Sequence record: MT968995.1 | DNA: 64,000 nucleotides | Source: Escherichia phage vB_EcoM_WL-3 | Strand: one strand, 5' to 3' | The notes under the pieces: generated by a model | What the model saw: the letters and a program-made list of their open reading frames with translations, nothing else | Database searches by the model: none | Told to the model about the DNA's origin: nothing | Made by a program: the position numbers and the translations under genes | In this document: one piece after another, positions 57,611-62,752 of the stretch | Position numbering within the stretch: position 1 is the stretch's first letter | Layout: each line of letters starts with the position of its first letter

Positions 57611-58246
57611 TCACAGTTCAGATGCTACGGTGATTACTGCTTCAATGTTTTCTGCCGAGCGTTTAATGTCAAGATACACATTACCGTTTTTAGCGATTTT
57701 ACATGACATTCCGATATCAGTAAATTTCTGAATATGATGTTCCATCATTTTGTATCCAAAAATTCGCATATTTCCATTGTTGTTAATTTCAAAATTACGA
57801 ATTCCGTGAGTGCGTTTTTCTAAAATAGCGAGATAGTTACTACGATAAGTTTCAACCTTTTTAAGAACAAATCCATTTTCATCTAAAAGTTTTAACATGA
57901 AGTCTTTATCTTCTTCCATATCAGAAGTAATCTCGCGAGCTTTACGTGTTGCTCGTTTTTTCAGCAGTTCAGGAGCGTTTTCCTGCGCGTATAAAGTTGC
58001 CGCATTTGAAATAATATCCTGAGCTTCACCTGTAATGATTAATCCATCACCAGATTTCTCCACCAGGCCTTTTTTAATCAATACCCCAATATTACTATTA
58101 ACTACTGCATTACCTAAATCTGGATGCACCTCACGAACTTCTGCGGCTGTAATGAAATCTTTCTTAGCAATGGTAATTAAAATCGCAGCAGTTTTTTCAT
58201 TCAGAACATCGTTAGAAGCTTTGATGATGTAAGTTACTTTAGACAT
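57611..58246 (-). CDS. motA: MotA middle-transcription activator
   Basis: 211-aa ORF; T4 size and position. Confidence 0.9.
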   Translation of the reverse strand: MSKVTYIIKASNDVLNEKTAAILITIAKKDFITAAEVREVHPDLGNAVVNSNIGVLIKKGLVEKSGDGLIITGEAQDIISNAATLYAQENAPELLKKRATRKAREITSDMEEDKDFMLKLLDENGFVLKKVETYRSNYLAILEKRTHGIRNFEINNNGNMRIFGYKMMEHHIQKFTDIGMSCKIAKNGNVYLDIKRSAENIEAVITVASEL

Positions 58247-58278: not shown

Positions 58279-58368
58279 GATAGTTGTATAGTACCACAGT
58301 ATGCTTTGGTTGTAAACCGTTTTGTGAAAAATTTTTGAAATAAAAAAGGGAGAGCCTCGGCTCTCCCT
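58279..58368 (-). promoter_or_regulatory. Terminator hairpin plus early promoter cassette upstream of motA (PeSL-like)
   Basis: On the - strand: hairpin gggagagccgaggctctccc, TTTTTT, GTTTAC, TACTATAC; homologous to 41870-41958. Confidence 0.55.
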
Positions 58369-58372
58369 AAAA

Positions 58373-58522
58373 TTACTGCATGACTGTGATAACTGTCATG
58401 ATAACACGTTGAATTCCGAACGCAAGAAGACCTCCTGCTACGGCTGGAACAACGCCTAAACCCGCCAGTAAAATGCTACCAGATACTAATGCAGCGCTTG
58501 TAATACCAATGAATGGACTCAT
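58373..58522 (-). CDS. Small hydrophobic membrane peptide
   Basis: 49-aa ORF found by hand (MSPFIGITSAALVSGSILLAGLGVVPAVAGGLLAFGIQRVIMTVITVMQ); ATGA overlap with the gene 52 stop. Confidence 0.45.
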   Translation of the reverse strand: MSPFIGITSAALVSGSILLAGLGVVPAVAGGLLAFGIQRVIMTVITVMQ

Positions 58523-59851: not shown

Positions 59852-59992
59852 TTACCATACTAGTGAATGTAGTGCCATAATAACATCAGAAATGAAAAGC
59901 ACGACTTGAATTAATCCGAACATTACTCCATAATATAGTGCTACCAATAAAGCAGCAAGGGCTACCGAGTAGCCCAAGATTTTCTTAATCAT
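59852..59992 (-). CDS. Small hydrophobic membrane peptide
   Basis: 46-aa ORF found by hand (MIKKILGYSVALAALLVALYYGVMFGLIQ...). Confidence 0.4.
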   Translation of the reverse strand: MIKKILGYSVALAALLVALYYGVMFGLIQVVLFISDVIMALHSLVW

Positions 59993-60140
59993 TAGATAAC
60001 AACGCAAATGTTAAATATGCACACATACCCTGAGCTAAAGCTTGCGAAAACACACTGCTAGCATCAATACAAATAGTTAAAACACATGCTACTATCCAAC
60101 AAATAAATGAAATAACTCCTAATAGTTTTGCAATATTCAT
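59985..60140 (-). CDS. ac: Small hydrophobic membrane protein, possibly Ac
   Basis: 51-aa ORF found by hand (MNIAKLLGVISFICWIVACVLTICIDASS...); size and position fit T4 ac, assignment from memory only. Confidence 0.4.
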   Translation of the reverse strand: MNIAKLLGVISFICWIVACVLTICIDASSVFSQALAQGMCAYLTFALLSND

Positions 60141-60742: not shown

Positions 60743-60958
60743 TTAATCGTCGCAGTCGACGCTCAATTCCCAGAACTCTTCTACAGTATAAGTTTCAGTA
60801 TCATTTTCAATACAGAAACGTTCATTACTGTTATTTGCTAAAGTAGCGTTAACTGTCATTTTCTCGCTAGTGCTTTTAAGAGGTGAAATACGAATTAACT
60901 GATCACCATTATCTAAACAGAAAATTTCACCGACCTTTACATCTTTAAAAATTTTCAT
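60743..60958 (-). CDS. Small protein (ndd.1 position)
   Basis: 71-aa ORF. Confidence 0.5.
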   Translation of the reverse strand: MKIFKDVKVGEIFCLDNGDQLIRISPLKSTSEKMTVNATLANNSNERFCIENDTETYTVEEFWELSVDCDD

Positions 60959-60966
60959 AATTCACC

Positions 60967-61077
60967 TCAAGGAGTATAAAATCCAAACGCAGTTGTTGAC
61001 CATCCCATCCAGTATGGGAAATTTGCACCAATGTAAAACATAAGAATATAAAACCAACCACTCAGCAAATTCATCAT
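60967..61077 (-). CDS. Small aromatic/hydrophobic peptide
   Basis: 36-aa ORF found by hand; ATGA overlap with the upstream ORF stop and GAGGTGA RBS for the next gene. Confidence 0.3.
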   Translation of the reverse strand: MMNLLSGWFYILMFYIGANFPYWMGWSTTAFGFYTP

Positions 61078-61292
61078 TTTACACCATTCCAAATTGTTTC
61101 AACCACAGATTTTAAGCCATTTTGATGAATGTCCATTCCGACAACCGTCATCAAATAGATTCCAACCACAACTGAACCCAAGGCGAAAATCAGCCAGAAA
61201 ATGAATAAAGCTGGAAAAATATTATCGAAAAACCATTCAATAAATGTAAAAGCACTACGTTTACGCTTCATATTTTCCTCACATAAATCCAA
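61074..61292 (-). CDS. Small membrane protein
   Basis: 72-aa ORF with a central transmembrane segment. Confidence 0.45.
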   Translation of the reverse strand: MDLCEENMKRKRSAFTFIEWFFDNIFPALFIFWLIFALGSVVVGIYLMTVVGMDIHQNGLKSVVETIWNGVK

Positions 61293-61389
61293 AGTAAGCG
61301 TTTAATACATCAATCATTAAAACGATTGGGAATATACTCAAAACTACTAGTATTATAACTACATTCCATATAGCTTTAACAATCTTTTT
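61279..61389 (-). CDS. Small hydrophobic peptide
   Basis: 37 aa from ATG 61389 downstream of an early promoter (61405-61450) and GGAGG RBS; the 82-aa ORF-track version runs through the promoter. Confidence 0.4.
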   Translation of the reverse strand, partial: KKIVKAIWNVVIILVVLSIFPIVLMIDVLNAYFGFM

Positions 61390-61457
61390 CATTTTCTGTT
61401 CCTCCGTAGTTGATAGGGTAATAATACCACAGAGGAACAGTCTTGTAAACAACTTTT

Positions 61458-61556
61458 TTAAAAATATTCGTAATAAATGTGAATACCAATCACTACTGCC
61501 GAAACTTGCGCAACCCACCATGCACAAGCAATAAGTACAGAATTCAAAATTTTCAT
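61458..61556 (-). CDS. Small hydrophobic peptide
   Basis: 32-aa ORF found by hand; ATGA overlap with the upstream ORF. Confidence 0.3.
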   Translation of the reverse strand: MKILNSVLIACAWWVAQVSAVVIGIHIYYEYF

Positions 61557-61642
61557 AATAACCTCATCACAAAAGTAAATGTTAAACAAATTAATGGAAT
61601 ACTAATTAACCAAATAAAACACCACCACCACAATGAACTCAT
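61553..61642 (-). CDS. Small hydrophobic peptide
   Basis: 29-aa ORF found by hand (MSSLWWWCFIWLISIPLICLTFTFVMRLL); ATGA overlap with the upstream ORF. Confidence 0.3.
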   Translation of the reverse strand: MSSLWWWCFIWLISIPLICLTFTFVMRLL

Positions 61643-61911
61643 AGTTCAATCTCAGCGATTTTCATTTCATTACTATTAATAGCCGCTTTAAGACTATCTG
61701 AAAGAATTACATTCCAGTGGTCATTCATATGACCATTAACTAAGCGTGTAATTTCTTCGGGAGTTGAAAAATAAGGCGTATCAGACTCCCAGTGCGATAG
61801 TCCCAAGCGAGTATAAATCATACCTTCATCATCGCTAGAATATTCAACTGACACAAACTCATCAGTTATTTTATGTTTAGCGTAATAAAATTTAAATTTC
61901 ATTTTACTCAA
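61639..61911 (-). CDS. Small protein
   Basis: 90-aa ORF. Confidence 0.5.
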   Translation of the reverse strand: MSKMKFKFYYAKHKITDEFVSVEYSSDDEGMIYTRLGLSHWESDTPYFSTPEEITRLVNGHMNDHWNVILSDSLKAAINSNEMKIAEIEL

Positions 61912-62114
61912 TAATCCGCTAAAAGATCGACAATTGCATCACGAAGACACTTATTCGCAATACGTTTAAGAGCAATTTCAGTTTCTGGAGCATTTTGAAT
62001 AATCATTGAATTCAATTCAGCCTCAGCAAACTGAAGTTCTTTAACTAATTCAGCTTTATATTTTCCTTGCCCTTTCTTAGCTTTTGCTCGTTTTAATTCA
62101 GCTGTAGTAAACAT
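61908..62114 (-). CDS. Small Lys-rich protein
   Basis: 68 aa from the internal ATG at 62114; an early promoter cassette (62140-62190) lies inside the longer ORF-track version. Confidence 0.45.
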   Translation of the reverse strand: MFTTAELKRAKAKKGQGKYKAELVKELQFAEAELNSMIIQNAPETEIALKRIANKCLRDAIVDLLADY

Positions 62115-62194
62115 TTTATTCTCCAAATCCGTATCAGTTGATAGTTGTATAGTACCACAGTCCTTGTGGTTTGTAAACCGTTTTGTGAAATTTT

Positions 62195-62752
62195 TTAAAT
62201 GGAAAGATACCATCCGTTGTAGTTGCTTTTTCTTACAACCTTACGAAGGTCTTCTCTATCACCGATGAACTTCGGAGTGTACTGGATGACACCTGGATGA
62301 ATTTCTTTAGTGTTGAATATAATTATACAGTCAGCGACTTGATGATTCAGAATGGGCCCTAGATTTATTCCAGAACCGTATGGATACTCCCCGCTGCATC
62401 CGGTTGTTACCGAAATCCAACGTGAGTCAGTTTGATGTGTTTTGACTTCTACACGAAGCCCACAGTATTTTGGATGCGCCAATACATCCCATGCGTATGT
62501 ATACGGGTCATTAACATCCTCTTGGCCTTTGTTAACATACCCGCTCAGCCAATCTGCTACAAAAAACTCTGCATACACAGCGATACGGCATCTTTCGATA
62601 ACTTCTGCTTTATCCTGATTTGGATTTTGTTTTAGAGAGTATCTTGCTGTATCAGCAATTTTGACCTTCATTTCACTAGTCAAGTCACTGTTCGATAGGG
62701 TAAATGTCGGAATCTGAAATAGTCTCTGTAAACCTGGATTCGTTTTCTGCAT
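62195..62752 (-). CDS. denB: Endonuclease IV
   Basis: 185-aa ORF; T4 size and position adjacent to rIIB. Confidence 0.8.
   Translation of the reverse strand: MQKTNPGLQRLFQIPTFTLSNSDLTSEMKVKIADTARYSLKQNPNQDKAEVIERCRIAVYAEFFVADWLSGYVNKGQEDVNDPYTYAWDVLAHPKYCGLRVEVKTHQTDSRWISVTTGCSGEYPYGSGINLGPILNHQVADCIIIFNTKEIHPGVIQYTPKFIGDREDLRKVVRKSNYNGWYLSI

Follow-up and report, generated by a model that had tools for sequence, protein, structure and literature searches.

The denB-ndd interval of a T4-like coliphage carries the mini-genes ndd.6 to ndd.2, a probable cluster of accessory inner-membrane micro-proteins

What is encoded by the run of very short minus-strand open reading frames at positions 60967-61642 of Escherichia phage vB_EcoM_WL-3 (MT968995.1), and what might such small products do for the phage? 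The window, i.e. the whole stretch of 64,000 nucleotides analysed here, comes from a T4-like coliphage (Tequatrovirus) and exhibits 98.6% DNA identity to Tequatrovirus phages. Comparison with the T4 genome (NC_000866, T4p270-T4p275) revealed a one-to-one correspondence between the ORFs of the window and ndd.2-ndd.6, with 90-97% protein identity and with the denB-ndd interval, the strand and the order all shared, which identifies the mini-ORFs as the T4 genes ndd.6, ndd.5, ndd.4, ndd.3+ndd.2a and ndd.2. All five have PHROG matches (8851, 5011, 3098, 2401 and 4135, in the order from ndd.6 to ndd.2) and two of the five families have Pfam matches (DUF7248 for the 65-aa ORF, with a profile match of 65 bits against a cutoff of 27, and PF26889 for homologues of ndd.4). 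The mini-ORFs are thus not overlooked, as a preliminary description of this DNA implied, since all are named T4 genes with PHROG families; the cluster has been annotated in T4 for decades, from the T4 genome project onwards, and its families are curated. Similar ORFs that the same description had found by hand on both sides of gene 52 proved to be real and correspond to the annotated T4 genes motA.1 (58373-58522), 52.1 and ac (59852-60140). Altogether, we consider it quite probable that the locus is the ndd.6-ndd.5-ndd.4-(ndd.3/2a)-ndd.2 cluster, which lies between denB and ndd in the dispensable "D region", and that it encodes accessory inner-membrane micro-proteins.

The individual gene models (Table 1) required several corrections. 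Five tiny minus-strand ORFs are indeed present where they had been reported, but the product of the one given as 72 aa is most likely 65 aa long: the shorter version is favoured because its ATG follows a well-spaced GAGG Shine-Dalgarno sequence and does not vary in 21/21 sequences, and because RB51 and other records start the gene there. The predicted 65-aa DUF7248 protein is basic at its N-terminus (KRKR), has a single transmembrane helix and carries the conserved motif GLKSVVExIWNG in its C-terminal part, and AlphaFold2 modeled it as all-helical (helices 3-17, 19-51 and 53-64; pLDDT 79.5), with a central helix of 33 residues. In the T4 reference alone one base is missing (ATGAA-CGT), which splits this ORF into ndd.3 and ndd.2a; the alignment thus identifies these two T4 genes as halves of one conserved 65-aa DUF7248 gene, which in the window is intact. 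The HIDEN-SEQ annotation lists ndd.3 with a span of 82 nt, a hint that the T4 stock of that study may contain the additional base and thus an intact 65-aa gene. The ndd.4 product (basic at its N-terminus, with one strongly hydrophobic segment followed by a conserved Asp) is likewise predicted to be 37 aa and not 42 aa long, as T4 has an ATG where the window has an ACG just 5' of the GGAGG, and this accounts for the 42-aa ndd.4 of the T4 annotation. ndd.6 exhibits a single hydrophobic segment, a C-terminal Arg and the conserved motif WC.IW..IP.IC; its copy in the window is one Trp longer than that of T4, owing to an in-frame extra codon that is unique in comparison with the 21 sequences. ndd.2 is rich in aromatic residues (33% F/W/Y), has no charged residues at all and carries the conserved motif G.N.PYW(L/M)GW. 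In many deposited genomes ndd.6, ndd.4 or ndd.2 is missing altogether from the annotation.

Table 1. Positions of the mini-genes, promoters and neighbouring features in the window
Feature	Position	Strand	Remarks
Early promoter, upstream, T4-type (GTTTACAAACCACAAGGACTGTGGTACTAT)	62149..62178	-	exact GTTTAC-N14-TGGTAYWAT; 0 matches in 100 shuffles
orf68 (context; not in T4)	61908..62114	-	PHROG 4535; 68-aa homologue in L032 with its own Shine-Dalgarno
orf87 (context; not in T4)	61639..61902	-	PHROG 2390, E=4e-46
ndd.6 homologue, 29 aa (MSSLWWWCFIWLISIPLICLTFTFVMRLL)	61553..61642	-	PHROG 8851, E=3e-14; T4 ndd.6 in the same position
ndd.5 homologue, 32 aa	61458..61556	-	PHROG 5011, E=4e-26
Early promoter, internal, T4-type (GTTTACAAGACTGTTCCTCTGTGGTATTAT)	61421..61450	-	GTTTAC-N14-TGGTATTAT, exact pattern match
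ndd.4 5'UTR	61393..61420	-	GGAGG Shine-Dalgarno at 61401-61405; shared 'CTATCAACT' motif
ndd.4 homologue, 37 aa (MKKIVKAIWNVVIILVVLSIFPIVLMIDVLNAYFGFM)	61279..61392	-	PHROG 3098, E=3e-21; PF26889 on homologues
DUF7248 gene, 65 aa (ATG)	61074..61271	-	Pfam DUF7248 E=5e-18; PHROG 2401 E=8e-30
DUF7248 ORF, alternative TTG start, 72 aa	61074-61292	-	reading frame
ndd.2 homologue, 36 aa	60967..61077	-	PHROG 4135, E=2e-24
ndd.1 homologue, 71 aa, hydrophilic	60743..60958	-	PHROG 2183; final gene of the unit
Terminator-like hairpin, end of ndd.1 (weak)	60748..60761	-	possible end of the transcription unit

The T4 early-promoter pattern occurs three times in the window, compared with 0 occurrences in 100 shuffles. 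The internal early promoter that had been proposed to feed one of the mini-ORFs was confirmed at 61450-61421 as an exact match, and a second one at 62178-62149 probably feeds orf68, orf87, ndd.6 and ndd.5; the annotation of SA20RB has early promoters at the sites homologous to both, and the two sites provide the ndd.2-ndd.6 set with an early-class expression signal. A GTTTAC...TA(C/T)(T/A)AT promoter immediately precedes the ndd.4 homologue in almost every locus, in all genera examined. The genes are arranged in two early units, namely the upstream promoter followed by orf68, orf87, ndd.6 and ndd.5, and the internal promoter followed by ndd.4, the 65-aa DUF7248 gene, ndd.2 and ndd.1. Within the units, genes are joined either by ATGA/TAATG overlaps or by spacers of 7-10 nt with a Shine-Dalgarno sequence over the preceding stop codon. 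The ATGA overlaps are found at 61639-61642 (the stop of orf87 and the start of ndd.6), at 61553-61556 (ndd.6/ndd.5, where the GAGG Shine-Dalgarno of ndd.5 lies within the 3' end of ndd.6) and at 61074-61077 (65-aa ORF/ndd.2). The statement that most of the mini-ORFs are joined in this way was overstated, as it applies to two of the four internal junctions, in addition to the junction with the upstream 87-aa ORF. Of the remaining two, the ndd.5/ndd.4 junction is a 65-nt gap that contains the promoter, and the ndd.4/65-aa ORF junction is a 7-nt spacer, with a Shine-Dalgarno sequence (TGAGGAAAATATG) that overlaps the ndd.4 stop. The Shine-Dalgarno sequence of ndd.1 similarly overlaps the stop of ndd.2 (TGAGGTGAATTATG), and a rho-independent terminator is annotated in the ndd.1-ndd interval of SA20RB.

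Evidence that the frames are protein-coding comes from a set of 21 distinct Tequatrovirus sequences. The preliminary description regarded a lack of synonymous-site bias across related phages as an argument against coding; the bias is present, with 20, 11 and 54 of the 85 polymorphic sites falling at codon positions 1, 2 and 3, respectively (p=1e-8). The in-frame pN/pS ratio is 0.30 for ndd.6, 0.07 for ndd.5 (in which 11/14 polymorphic sites are at codon position 3), 0.09 for the 65-aa ORF and 0.15 for ndd.2, against values mostly >1 in the two other frames of the same four ORFs. Between genera pN ranges from 0.24 to 0.46, with pS of 0.58-0.78, i.e. at or near saturation. Start and stop codons are conserved in 21/21 sequences; where the ATG of ndd.2 is lost, in 7 cases, the next ATG produces a TAATG overlap. 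In ndd.4 the ratio of 1.45 is based on 8 sites, too few substitutions to show purifying selection within the genus, so that the coding status of this gene rests on its deep conservation: it has no indels in the 21 sequences, and its cross-genus pN is 0.36 versus a saturated pS of 0.74. Taken together, these patterns of substitution indicate that purifying selection acts on all five frames at the protein level. Frameshifts were found in ndd.2 (2/21 sequences), in the C-terminus of ndd.6 (one sequence) and, as mentioned above, in the 65-aa gene of the T4 reference, which suggests that the constraint on single members is not absolute or that some records contain sequencing errors. A nucleotide-level constraint was considered as the reason for the low synonymous diversity of ndd.4 within Tequatrovirus, but the synonymous codon identity of this gene at deep divergence is not clearly above that of ndd, so that we propose no RNA or DNA element embedded in it.

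The membrane character of the products had been inferred from their composition. The best 19-residue Kyte-Doolittle mean is 2.18-3.05 for ndd.6, ndd.5, ndd.4 and the DUF7248 protein, so the description "very hydrophobic" suits four of the five ORFs but not ndd.2, which is aromatic-rich and not strongly hydrophobic (1.17, a borderline value). The single-pass appearance was borne out, with one predicted membrane-spanning segment in each product (that of ndd.2 being borderline by Kyte-Doolittle). Hydrophobicity alone is nevertheless weak evidence, because hydrophobic ORFs are common in this AT-rich DNA: 1.5-30% of all ORFs of 25-75 aa in the window score equally high. According to the positive-inside rule, the putative topology would be N-in/C-out for ndd.5, ndd.4 and the DUF7248 protein, and N-out/C-in for ndd.6. 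Inspection of the products by eye revealed no signal-peptide cleavage site or beta-barrel features. The labels "outer membrane" and "periplasmic" that these products carry in the T4 record are old predictions.

Searches in other genomes identified 60 loci with ndd.4, the most widely kept member, 43 with DUF7248, 35 with ndd.2, 31 with ndd.6 and 23 with ndd.5. ndd.5 is restricted to Tequatrovirus and ndd.6 occurs across genera; four of the five families persist in phages of Klebsiella, Enterobacter/Citrobacter, Serratia/Erwinia and Pectobacterium. The colinear order and the tight junctions were found in 63 loci, with the order ndd.6, ndd.5, ndd.4, DUF7248, ndd.2 in 23 Tequatrovirus loci; the -4 overlap of ndd.5 with ndd.6 is maintained in 22/23 loci, and the junction of ndd.2 with the 65-aa gene is -4 (ATGA) in 18 loci and -1 (TAATG) in 7. 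Tevenvirinae that infect many different enterobacteria have retained four of the five families without a change of order. The conserved core of the cluster across Tevenvirinae is ndd.4, which has an early promoter to itself and which, of all the members, would be the first choice for functional work. A phmmer search with the 65-aa protein against 1.84 billion representatives reported 7 matches, with none outside T4-like phages beyond hydrophobic noise; several of them lie in giant repetitive proteins, which we dismissed as such noise, and the search yielded no functional lead. Word-indexed homologue searches returned close phage relatives only and added the Pfam labels, while the NCBIfam search of the products gave no matches. 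The sole PADLOC match, between ndd.4 and a transmembrane segment of KwaA (E=0.0085, 13.8 bits), is regarded as compositional noise. An Rfam scan of the locus at a permissive threshold reported only a chance-level match to potC (E=0.65), with no antisense RNA partner or other RNA element among the known families.

Published data on T4 describe the expression and the dispensability of these genes. The ndd.2-ndd.6 transcripts are classed as "early" (PMC9697503 Table S2). In the time-resolved T4 proteome Ndd and Ndd.1 were detected, the latter early, and no ndd.2-ndd.6 peptide was found (PMC9697503); this is a weak negative, because tiny hydrophobic peptides are poorly suited to tryptic mass spectrometry. 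Our literature search found no ribosome-profiling or small-protein study of T4. All of ndd.2-ndd.6 are "Not Fit" in the CRISPRi-ART knock-down (PMC11879866 supplement) and "Non-essential" by transposon insertion in HIDEN-SEQ (supplement, bioRxiv 10.1101/2025.11.20.689424). The deletion saΔ9, which removes 52.1, ac, stp, ndd, ndd.1-ndd.6 and denB, is viable with a burst of ~50%, and virtually abolishes the stimulation of host phospholipid (phosphatidylglycerol) synthesis after T4 infection (PMC6071114); no other phenotype has been assigned to a deletion spanning the cluster. With a long-standing annotation, curated families and no phenotype in two recent genome-wide fitness screens of T4, the cluster as such has little discovery value.

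We propose that host RNA polymerase would transcribe both units in the first minutes of infection, and that ribosomes would move from mini-gene to mini-gene, yielding roughly co-ordinated amounts of the products. Each product could then form a single helix inserted in the inner membrane, where the accessory micro-proteins may bind host inner-membrane proteins or alter the physiology of the envelope, serving neither structural nor essential functions of the phage. Beyond the membrane segment the products carry short conserved motifs (GLKSVVExIWNG, PYWLGW and the Asp that follows the ndd.4 helix), which would be expected of proteins with specific partners more than of peptides that merely damage membranes.

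An alternative is that the products are counter-defence or host-range factors, each of which would neutralise a membrane-embedded system of the host or of a prophage (for instance abortive-infection pores, membrane sensors or exclusion proteins) and would matter only on hosts with that system. This would agree with genes that are dispensable on laboratory K-12 and B strains, yet under purifying selection, with members whose presence differs among genera, and with a hyperplastic region shuffled by promoter/stem-loop cassettes, as published for the ndd.4/ndd.5 module (PMC4122927 Fig. 6A); the D-region neighbours rIIA/B and stp, moreover, interact with host defence systems (T4 annotation; HIDEN-SEQ text). 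However, for its defence-system screens the main text of HIDEN-SEQ names no ndd.x gene as conditionally essential, and q=1 for all of them in the one resampling table examined, so we regard this as unlikely.

The saΔ9 phenotype raises another possibility, that T4 relies on at least one mini-protein to stimulate phosphatidylglycerol/phospholipid synthesis in the infected host, either directly, by the action of this protein on a membrane-bound enzyme or regulator of lipid synthesis, or indirectly, if the sudden insertion of many small helices elicited an envelope response. The genes deleted in saΔ9 have no known lipid role and several encode predicted membrane proteins (PMC6071114 section 8), and the effect requires a protein made within 5 min after infection (PMC6071114), which fits the early promoters and the early transcripts. 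On the other hand, saΔ9 removes about a dozen genes, among which Ac, 52.1, Ndd and DenB are equally candidates, and specific stimulation of phosphatidylglycerol is also missing in mutants whose only defects are in dCTPase, endonuclease IV and Alc (PMC6071114), a result that points to the denB end of the region; these strains carry the rIIΔDD2 deletion (PMC6071114), which may reach into the mini-ORFs. The products also lack sequence similarity to lipid-metabolism proteins in PHROG, Pfam and NCBIfam. It is accordingly quite unlikely that a mini-protein plays this part, and there is a similarly slender chance that one member or the co-translated set is the long-sought T4 switch of host lipid synthesis towards phosphatidylglycerol or, more generally, that the micro-proteins dock on a specific host inner-membrane enzyme or defence component via GLKSVVExIWNG and PYWLGW. 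The cluster nonetheless represents a small, defined set of candidates for the gene of the saΔ9 interval behind this stimulation.

Among the three roles first proposed (superinfection exclusion, lysis timing and inhibition of host membrane proteins), exclusion and lysis timing are the less likely ones, since T4 has dedicated genes for them elsewhere and no plaque or fitness phenotype upon deletion or knock-down has been reported. The dedicated genes are imm, sp, t, rI and rIII, and the exclusion protein Imm and the lysis-inhibition protein RI are themselves small membrane or periplasmic proteins, a class that the small, early, membrane-directed products of the cluster resemble. However, Pfam and PHROG revealed no family match to Imm, Sp, a holin or an antiholin, the lysis genes are not adjacent (the neighbours are denB, ndd and topoisomerase genes), the promoters and transcripts are early and not late, which fits a holin poorly, and the literature examined reports no exclusion or lysis defect for the saΔ9 and NB5060-type deletions, which are viable and serve as standard backgrounds in the laboratory. 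We therefore find such a role very unlikely.

It is hardly credible that the peptides are irrelevant, as chance ORFs in T-rich DNA or as relay ORFs that stabilise the mRNA or deliver ribosomes to ndd.1 and ndd: proteomics detected no product, hydrophobic random ORFs are frequent in this window and tight coupling would fit a relay, but amino-acid sequence, length and motifs are conserved despite synonymous sites at or near saturation, the low pN/pS is confined to the coding frame (0.07-0.30 against mostly >1), a relay would not keep GLKSVVExIWNG or PYWLGW, and ndd is preceded by a Shine-Dalgarno sequence of its own, with the annotated terminator between it and ndd.1.

With accessory inner-membrane micro-proteins as the preferred reading, small membrane proteins available for comparison within T4 are Ac (51 aa) and gp52.1 (46 aa), which are also tiny, hydrophobic, early and dispensable, and are encoded in the D region a few hundred bases off. 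They belong to separate PHROG/Pfam families, however, with no sequence similarity to the ndd.x products, and Ac, annotated as a membrane protein that affects acridine sensitivity, has a selectable phenotype, unlike the ndd.x genes. Bacteria possess small inner-membrane regulatory proteins, such as MgrB, AcrZ, SgrT and PmrR. These resemble the phage peptides in length (29-65 aa), in having one transmembrane helix and in the short conserved motifs that flank it, and by analogy only the phage peptides may likewise act by binding a larger membrane protein; no homology between the two groups was detected in Pfam and NCBIfam. The type I toxins Hok, TisB, Ibs and Ldr are very short, very hydrophobic single-helix peptides, as the ndd.x products appear to be, but they are tightly repressed, whereas the ndd.x genes form a coupled operon with strong early promoters and good ribosome-binding sites; the strong Shine-Dalgarno sequences and the early promoters argue against repressed translation of ndd.x. 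Finally, as far as the promoter part is compared, the TTTACW-N17-TAYWAT motif flanking small accessory ORFs is shared with the PeSL (promoter-early/stem-loop) cassettes, mobile regulatory elements of the hyperplastic regions of T4-type phages (PMC2839356, PMC4122927), which account for the shuffling of such genes and not for their function.

A further difference from T4 is the presence of orf68 and orf87 between denB and ndd.6 in the window. The mechanically called 101-aa ORF beside denB (61908-62213) resolves into a promoter and a 68-aa gene: its first 33 codons correspond to the promoter and the 5'UTR, i.e. to a spurious N-terminus of orf68, and PHROG 4535 covers only residues 34-99. Together with the merging of ndd.3 and ndd.2a and the shortening of ndd.4, this is one of the gene-model fixes that follow from the analysis. 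T4 retains only the final 8 codons of orf87 (MKIAEIEL), fused to the promoter region. The differences in the presence or absence of orf68 and orf87 start at the promoter/5'UTR repeat.

The five minus-strand mini-ORFs lie where the preliminary description had placed them (see the table), and they are already known, annotated genes, namely the homologues of T4 ndd.2-ndd.6. About 500 Tequatrovirus (T4-like) phage genomes share 93-98.6% identity with the 1.3 kb around them, and the neighboring ORFs are clearly those of T4 (motA, gene 52, 52.1, ac, stp, ndd, denB, rIIB), all on the minus strand, i.e. the T4 early-gene strand; the similar ORFs noticed on the flanks of gene 52 correspond to motA.1, 52.1 and ac. 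Each of the five products matches a PHROG family (E=3e-14 to 8e-30), the 65-aa product matches DUF7248 in Pfam, and PF26889 was found on ndd.4 homologues. In the T4 record, the labels of ndd.2-ndd.6 predict an inner-membrane, outer-membrane or periplasmic location.

Mini-genes and associated features in the window, with lengths of the T4 reference products and conservation across 71 Ndd-anchored loci
Feature	Position	Strand	Product (aa)	T4 reference (aa)	Loci	Conserved motif
Early promoter, unit 1	62178-62149
Mechanical ORF	61908-62213		101
orf68	61908-62114		68 (probable)
orf87	61639-61902		87
ndd.6	61553-61642	-	29	28	31	WC.IW..IP.IC
ndd.5	61458-61556	-	32	32	23 (Tequatrovirus only)
Early promoter, unit 2	61450-61421
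ndd.4	61279-61392	-	37	42	60	basic N-terminus K.LLKAIWN; Asp just after helix
ndd.3/ndd.2a (DUF7248)	61074-61292 (TTG) or 61074-61271 (ATG)	-	72 or 65	26 and 40	43	C-terminal (D/E)GLKSVVE.IWNG
ndd.2	60967-61077	-	36	36	35	G.N.PYW(L/M)GW

The alignment of the 691-nt region from 21 distinct Tequatrovirus versions revealed 20/11/54 polymorphic sites at codon positions 1/2/3 (p=1e-8), with the bias individually significant for ndd.5, the 65-aa ORF and ndd.2. In the annotated frames pN/pS is low (ndd.6: 0.30; ndd.5: 0.07; 65-aa ORF: 0.09; ndd.2: 0.15), while most values in the other two frames exceed 1. Synonymous-site bias was the conservation check proposed in the preliminary description, and for these four ORFs the pattern fits coding. 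ndd.4 is uninformative in this respect within Tequatrovirus, since its variable sites number only eight, most of them giving I/V or A/V exchanges. Four genes start with ATG in all 21 sequences; in ndd.2 the first ATG is lost in seven, together with a TGA->TAA change in the upstream stop, which leaves a TAATG overlap on the second ATG, so that the coupling is kept in another form. Some indels are in-frame (an extra Trp codon in ndd.6 of the window, +6 in ndd.2 of one contig), and the others either lie outside the translated DNA or are frameshifts seen in isolation: one contig has a frameshifted 3' end of ndd.6, phages ECO4 and slur04 have a frameshifted ndd.2, and the T4 reference has a frameshifted 65-aa gene.

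Deeper conservation was analyzed from an anchor that does not depend on the mini-ORFs, namely Ndd (71 loci, Ndd identity down to 46%), and family members were counted by iterated profile searches over all small ORFs of these loci. Between genera pS is at or near saturation (0.58-0.78) vs pN of 0.24-0.46: what has been kept is the proteins, not the DNA. The gene order is colinear and the junctions are tight across loci (-4, -1, 7 or 10 nt), and the phages with divergent loci infect Klebsiella, Enterobacter/Citrobacter, Serratia/Erwinia and Pectobacterium. A GTTTAC...TA(C/T)(T/A)AT promoter and a GGAG Shine-Dalgarno sequence directly precede the ndd.4 homologue in nearly every divergent locus, and the conserved core of the cluster is "early promoter plus ndd.4". 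In the most distant locus (L038 2224-2759, Ndd identity 46%), the stop of a 41-aa ORF resembling ndd.4 overlaps the start of a 137-aa ORF, which stands in place of DUF7248 and whose signal sequence resembles that of a lipoprotein (lipobox …ATLIGC).

Within Tequatrovirus, only 2/37 third positions of ndd.4 are variable vs 47/133 in the neighbouring mini-genes (p=2e-4). Variation is normal in the promoter and UTR that immediately precede it, and at deep divergence the synonymous codon identity of ndd.4 is not clearly above that of ndd; we therefore regard recent recombinational homogenisation and a hidden nucleotide-level element as equally likely explanations.

Several gene models require correction. 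The long ORF, previously given as 72 aa, probably encodes 65 aa from the ATG. The T4 reference alone among the 21 sequences lacks one base six nt into this ORF (ATGAA-CGT), which implies that ndd.3 (L001 5049-5129) and ndd.2a (L001 4933-5055) are two halves of one DUF7248 gene. ndd.3 is a PHROG singleton in the CRISPRi-ART table (PMC11879866), and in the T4 genome used for HIDEN-SEQ (bioRxiv 10.1101/2025.11.20.689424) its span is listed as 82 nt, which, from coordinates only, suggests that this T4 stock carries the extra base and hence an intact 65-aa gene. The T4 annotation starts ndd.4 at an ATG that overlaps the GGAGG Shine-Dalgarno sequence and lies just upstream of it; this codon is ACG in the window and most relatives (window 61393-61407; L001 5251-5265), thus the 37-aa product is the conserved form. 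The mechanical 101-aa ORF overlaps the end of denB, its first 33 codons hold an early promoter and 5'UTR, and the match to PHROG 4535 covers residues 34-99 only; the actual gene probably starts at ATG 62114.

The mini-ORFs had been described as mostly joined by ATGA overlaps, which is true of two of the four internal junctions (ndd.6/ndd.5 at 61553-61556 and 65-aa ORF/ndd.2 at 61074-61077); ATGA also joins the upstream orf87 to ndd.6 (61639-61642). Of the other two, the ndd.5/ndd.4 junction is a 65-nt gap with a promoter inside, and ndd.4/65-aa ORF is a 7-nt spacer with the Shine-Dalgarno sequence overlapping the stop (ATGTGAGGAAAATATG); the ndd.2/ndd.1 junction is of similar type (TGAGGTGAATTATG). 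The internal early promoter, recognized already from the sequence (GTTTACAAGACTGTTCCTCTGTGGTATTAT), matches exactly the T4 early-promoter pattern GTTTAC-N14-TGGTAYWAT, which occurs three times in the window vs 0 in 100 shuffles. A second exact match lies inside the mechanical 101-aa ORF. The first unit comprises this upstream promoter, orf68, orf87, ndd.6 and ndd.5, and the second the internal promoter, ndd.4, DUF7248, ndd.2 and ndd.1, followed by a weak terminator-like hairpin. The third match (58288-58317) is positioned between motA.1 and motA, upstream of the latter (57611-58246).

Both units share the 5'UTR motif CTATCAACT (61411-61419; 62136-62144), followed by a GGAG Shine-Dalgarno sequence, and a near-identical UTR precedes T4 nrdC.8 (a CRISPRi-ART guide cross-hit). 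This is also why BLAST gives 2-4 "places" for each phage record. T4 lacks orf68 and orf87 (window 61639-62114); its upstream promoter runs into an 8-codon orf87 remnant (MKIAEIEL), the stop of which overlaps the ndd.6 start, and the promoter region fused to these codons forms an unannotated 42-aa mechanical ORF (L001 5494-5622). Other relatives possess orf87 without orf68. The breakpoints coincide with the repeated promoter/5'UTR sequence, and such gain or loss of genes at promoter repeats is what has been published for T4-type hyperplastic regions as PeSL "modular shuffling" (PMC4122927; PMC2839356); the ndd.4/ndd.5 module is among the published examples (PMC4122927 Fig. 6A).

Each product contains one hydrophobic stretch. 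The characterization as very hydrophobic peptides holds for ndd.6, ndd.5, ndd.4 and DUF7248 (best 19-residue Kyte-Doolittle mean 2.2-3.05), the exception being ndd.2, which has no charged residue and is 33% aromatic. Little weight can be placed on hydrophobicity by itself, as 1.5-30% of random 25-75 aa ORFs in the AT-rich window are equally hydrophobic. The N-termini of ndd.5, ndd.4 and DUF7248 are basic (MK.., MKK..K, MKRKR), and the flanking charges suggest an N-in/C-out orientation for these three and the opposite one for ndd.6, whose sole charge is a C-terminal Arg/Lys. The AlphaFold2 model of the 65-aa protein (shallow alignment, mean pLDDT 79.5; helices 3-17, 19-51, 53-64) is compatible with a transmembrane helix and, after it, a short amphipathic one bearing the conserved motif. 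Inspection by eye revealed no cleavable signal peptide or beta-barrel character, and for this reason we distrust the "outer membrane" and "periplasmic" labels of the T4 record.

In T4, the ndd.2-ndd.6 transcripts are classed as "early", and the time-resolved proteome contains Ndd and Ndd.1 and no ndd.2-ndd.6 protein (PMC9697503 Table S2). All of ndd.1-ndd.6 were scored "Not Fit" by CRISPRi-ART (PMC11879866) and, in the HIDEN-SEQ transposon mapping, "Non-essential", with almost every TA site hit; the HIDEN-SEQ main text names no ndd gene among the conditionally essential ones (bioRxiv 10.1101/2025.11.20.689424). The classical D-region deletions NB5060, rIIPT8 and saΔ9 remove the mini-gene interval and leave the phage viable. 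saΔ9, which lacks 52.1, ac, stp, ndd, ndd.1-ndd.6 and denB, has a burst of ~50% and has lost the stimulation of phospholipid (phosphatidylglycerol) synthesis in the host; this one physiological phenotype belongs to the deletion as a whole (PMC6071114 section 8).

The mini-genes are real, conserved, driven by early promoters, tightly coupled and dispensable in the laboratory, and the descriptive part of the interpretation in the preliminary description was largely right, the functional roles given there being candidates. We consider it quite probable that co-translation takes place in the first minutes of infection and that the products insert into the inner membrane as single helices. There they would be accessory factors affecting host membrane proteins or the physiology of the envelope, and their conserved motifs outside the membrane speak for specific partners. 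Among specific roles compatible with such accessory factors, stimulation of lipid synthesis, neutralisation of membrane-bound defence, and exclusion or lysis timing are each, taken singly, rather unlikely. That the peptides are irrelevant, the ORFs arising by chance or serving as relays, is very improbable, since both the pattern of substitutions and the deep conservation of the motifs contradict it.

Annotation of the mini-genes in other phage records (L064-L071) is very uneven: ndd.6 is usually left unannotated, ndd.4, ndd.5 or ndd.2 sometimes, and several records propagate wrong names, among them "naphthalene 1,2-dioxygenase", "baseplate wedge subunit" and "outer membrane protein".
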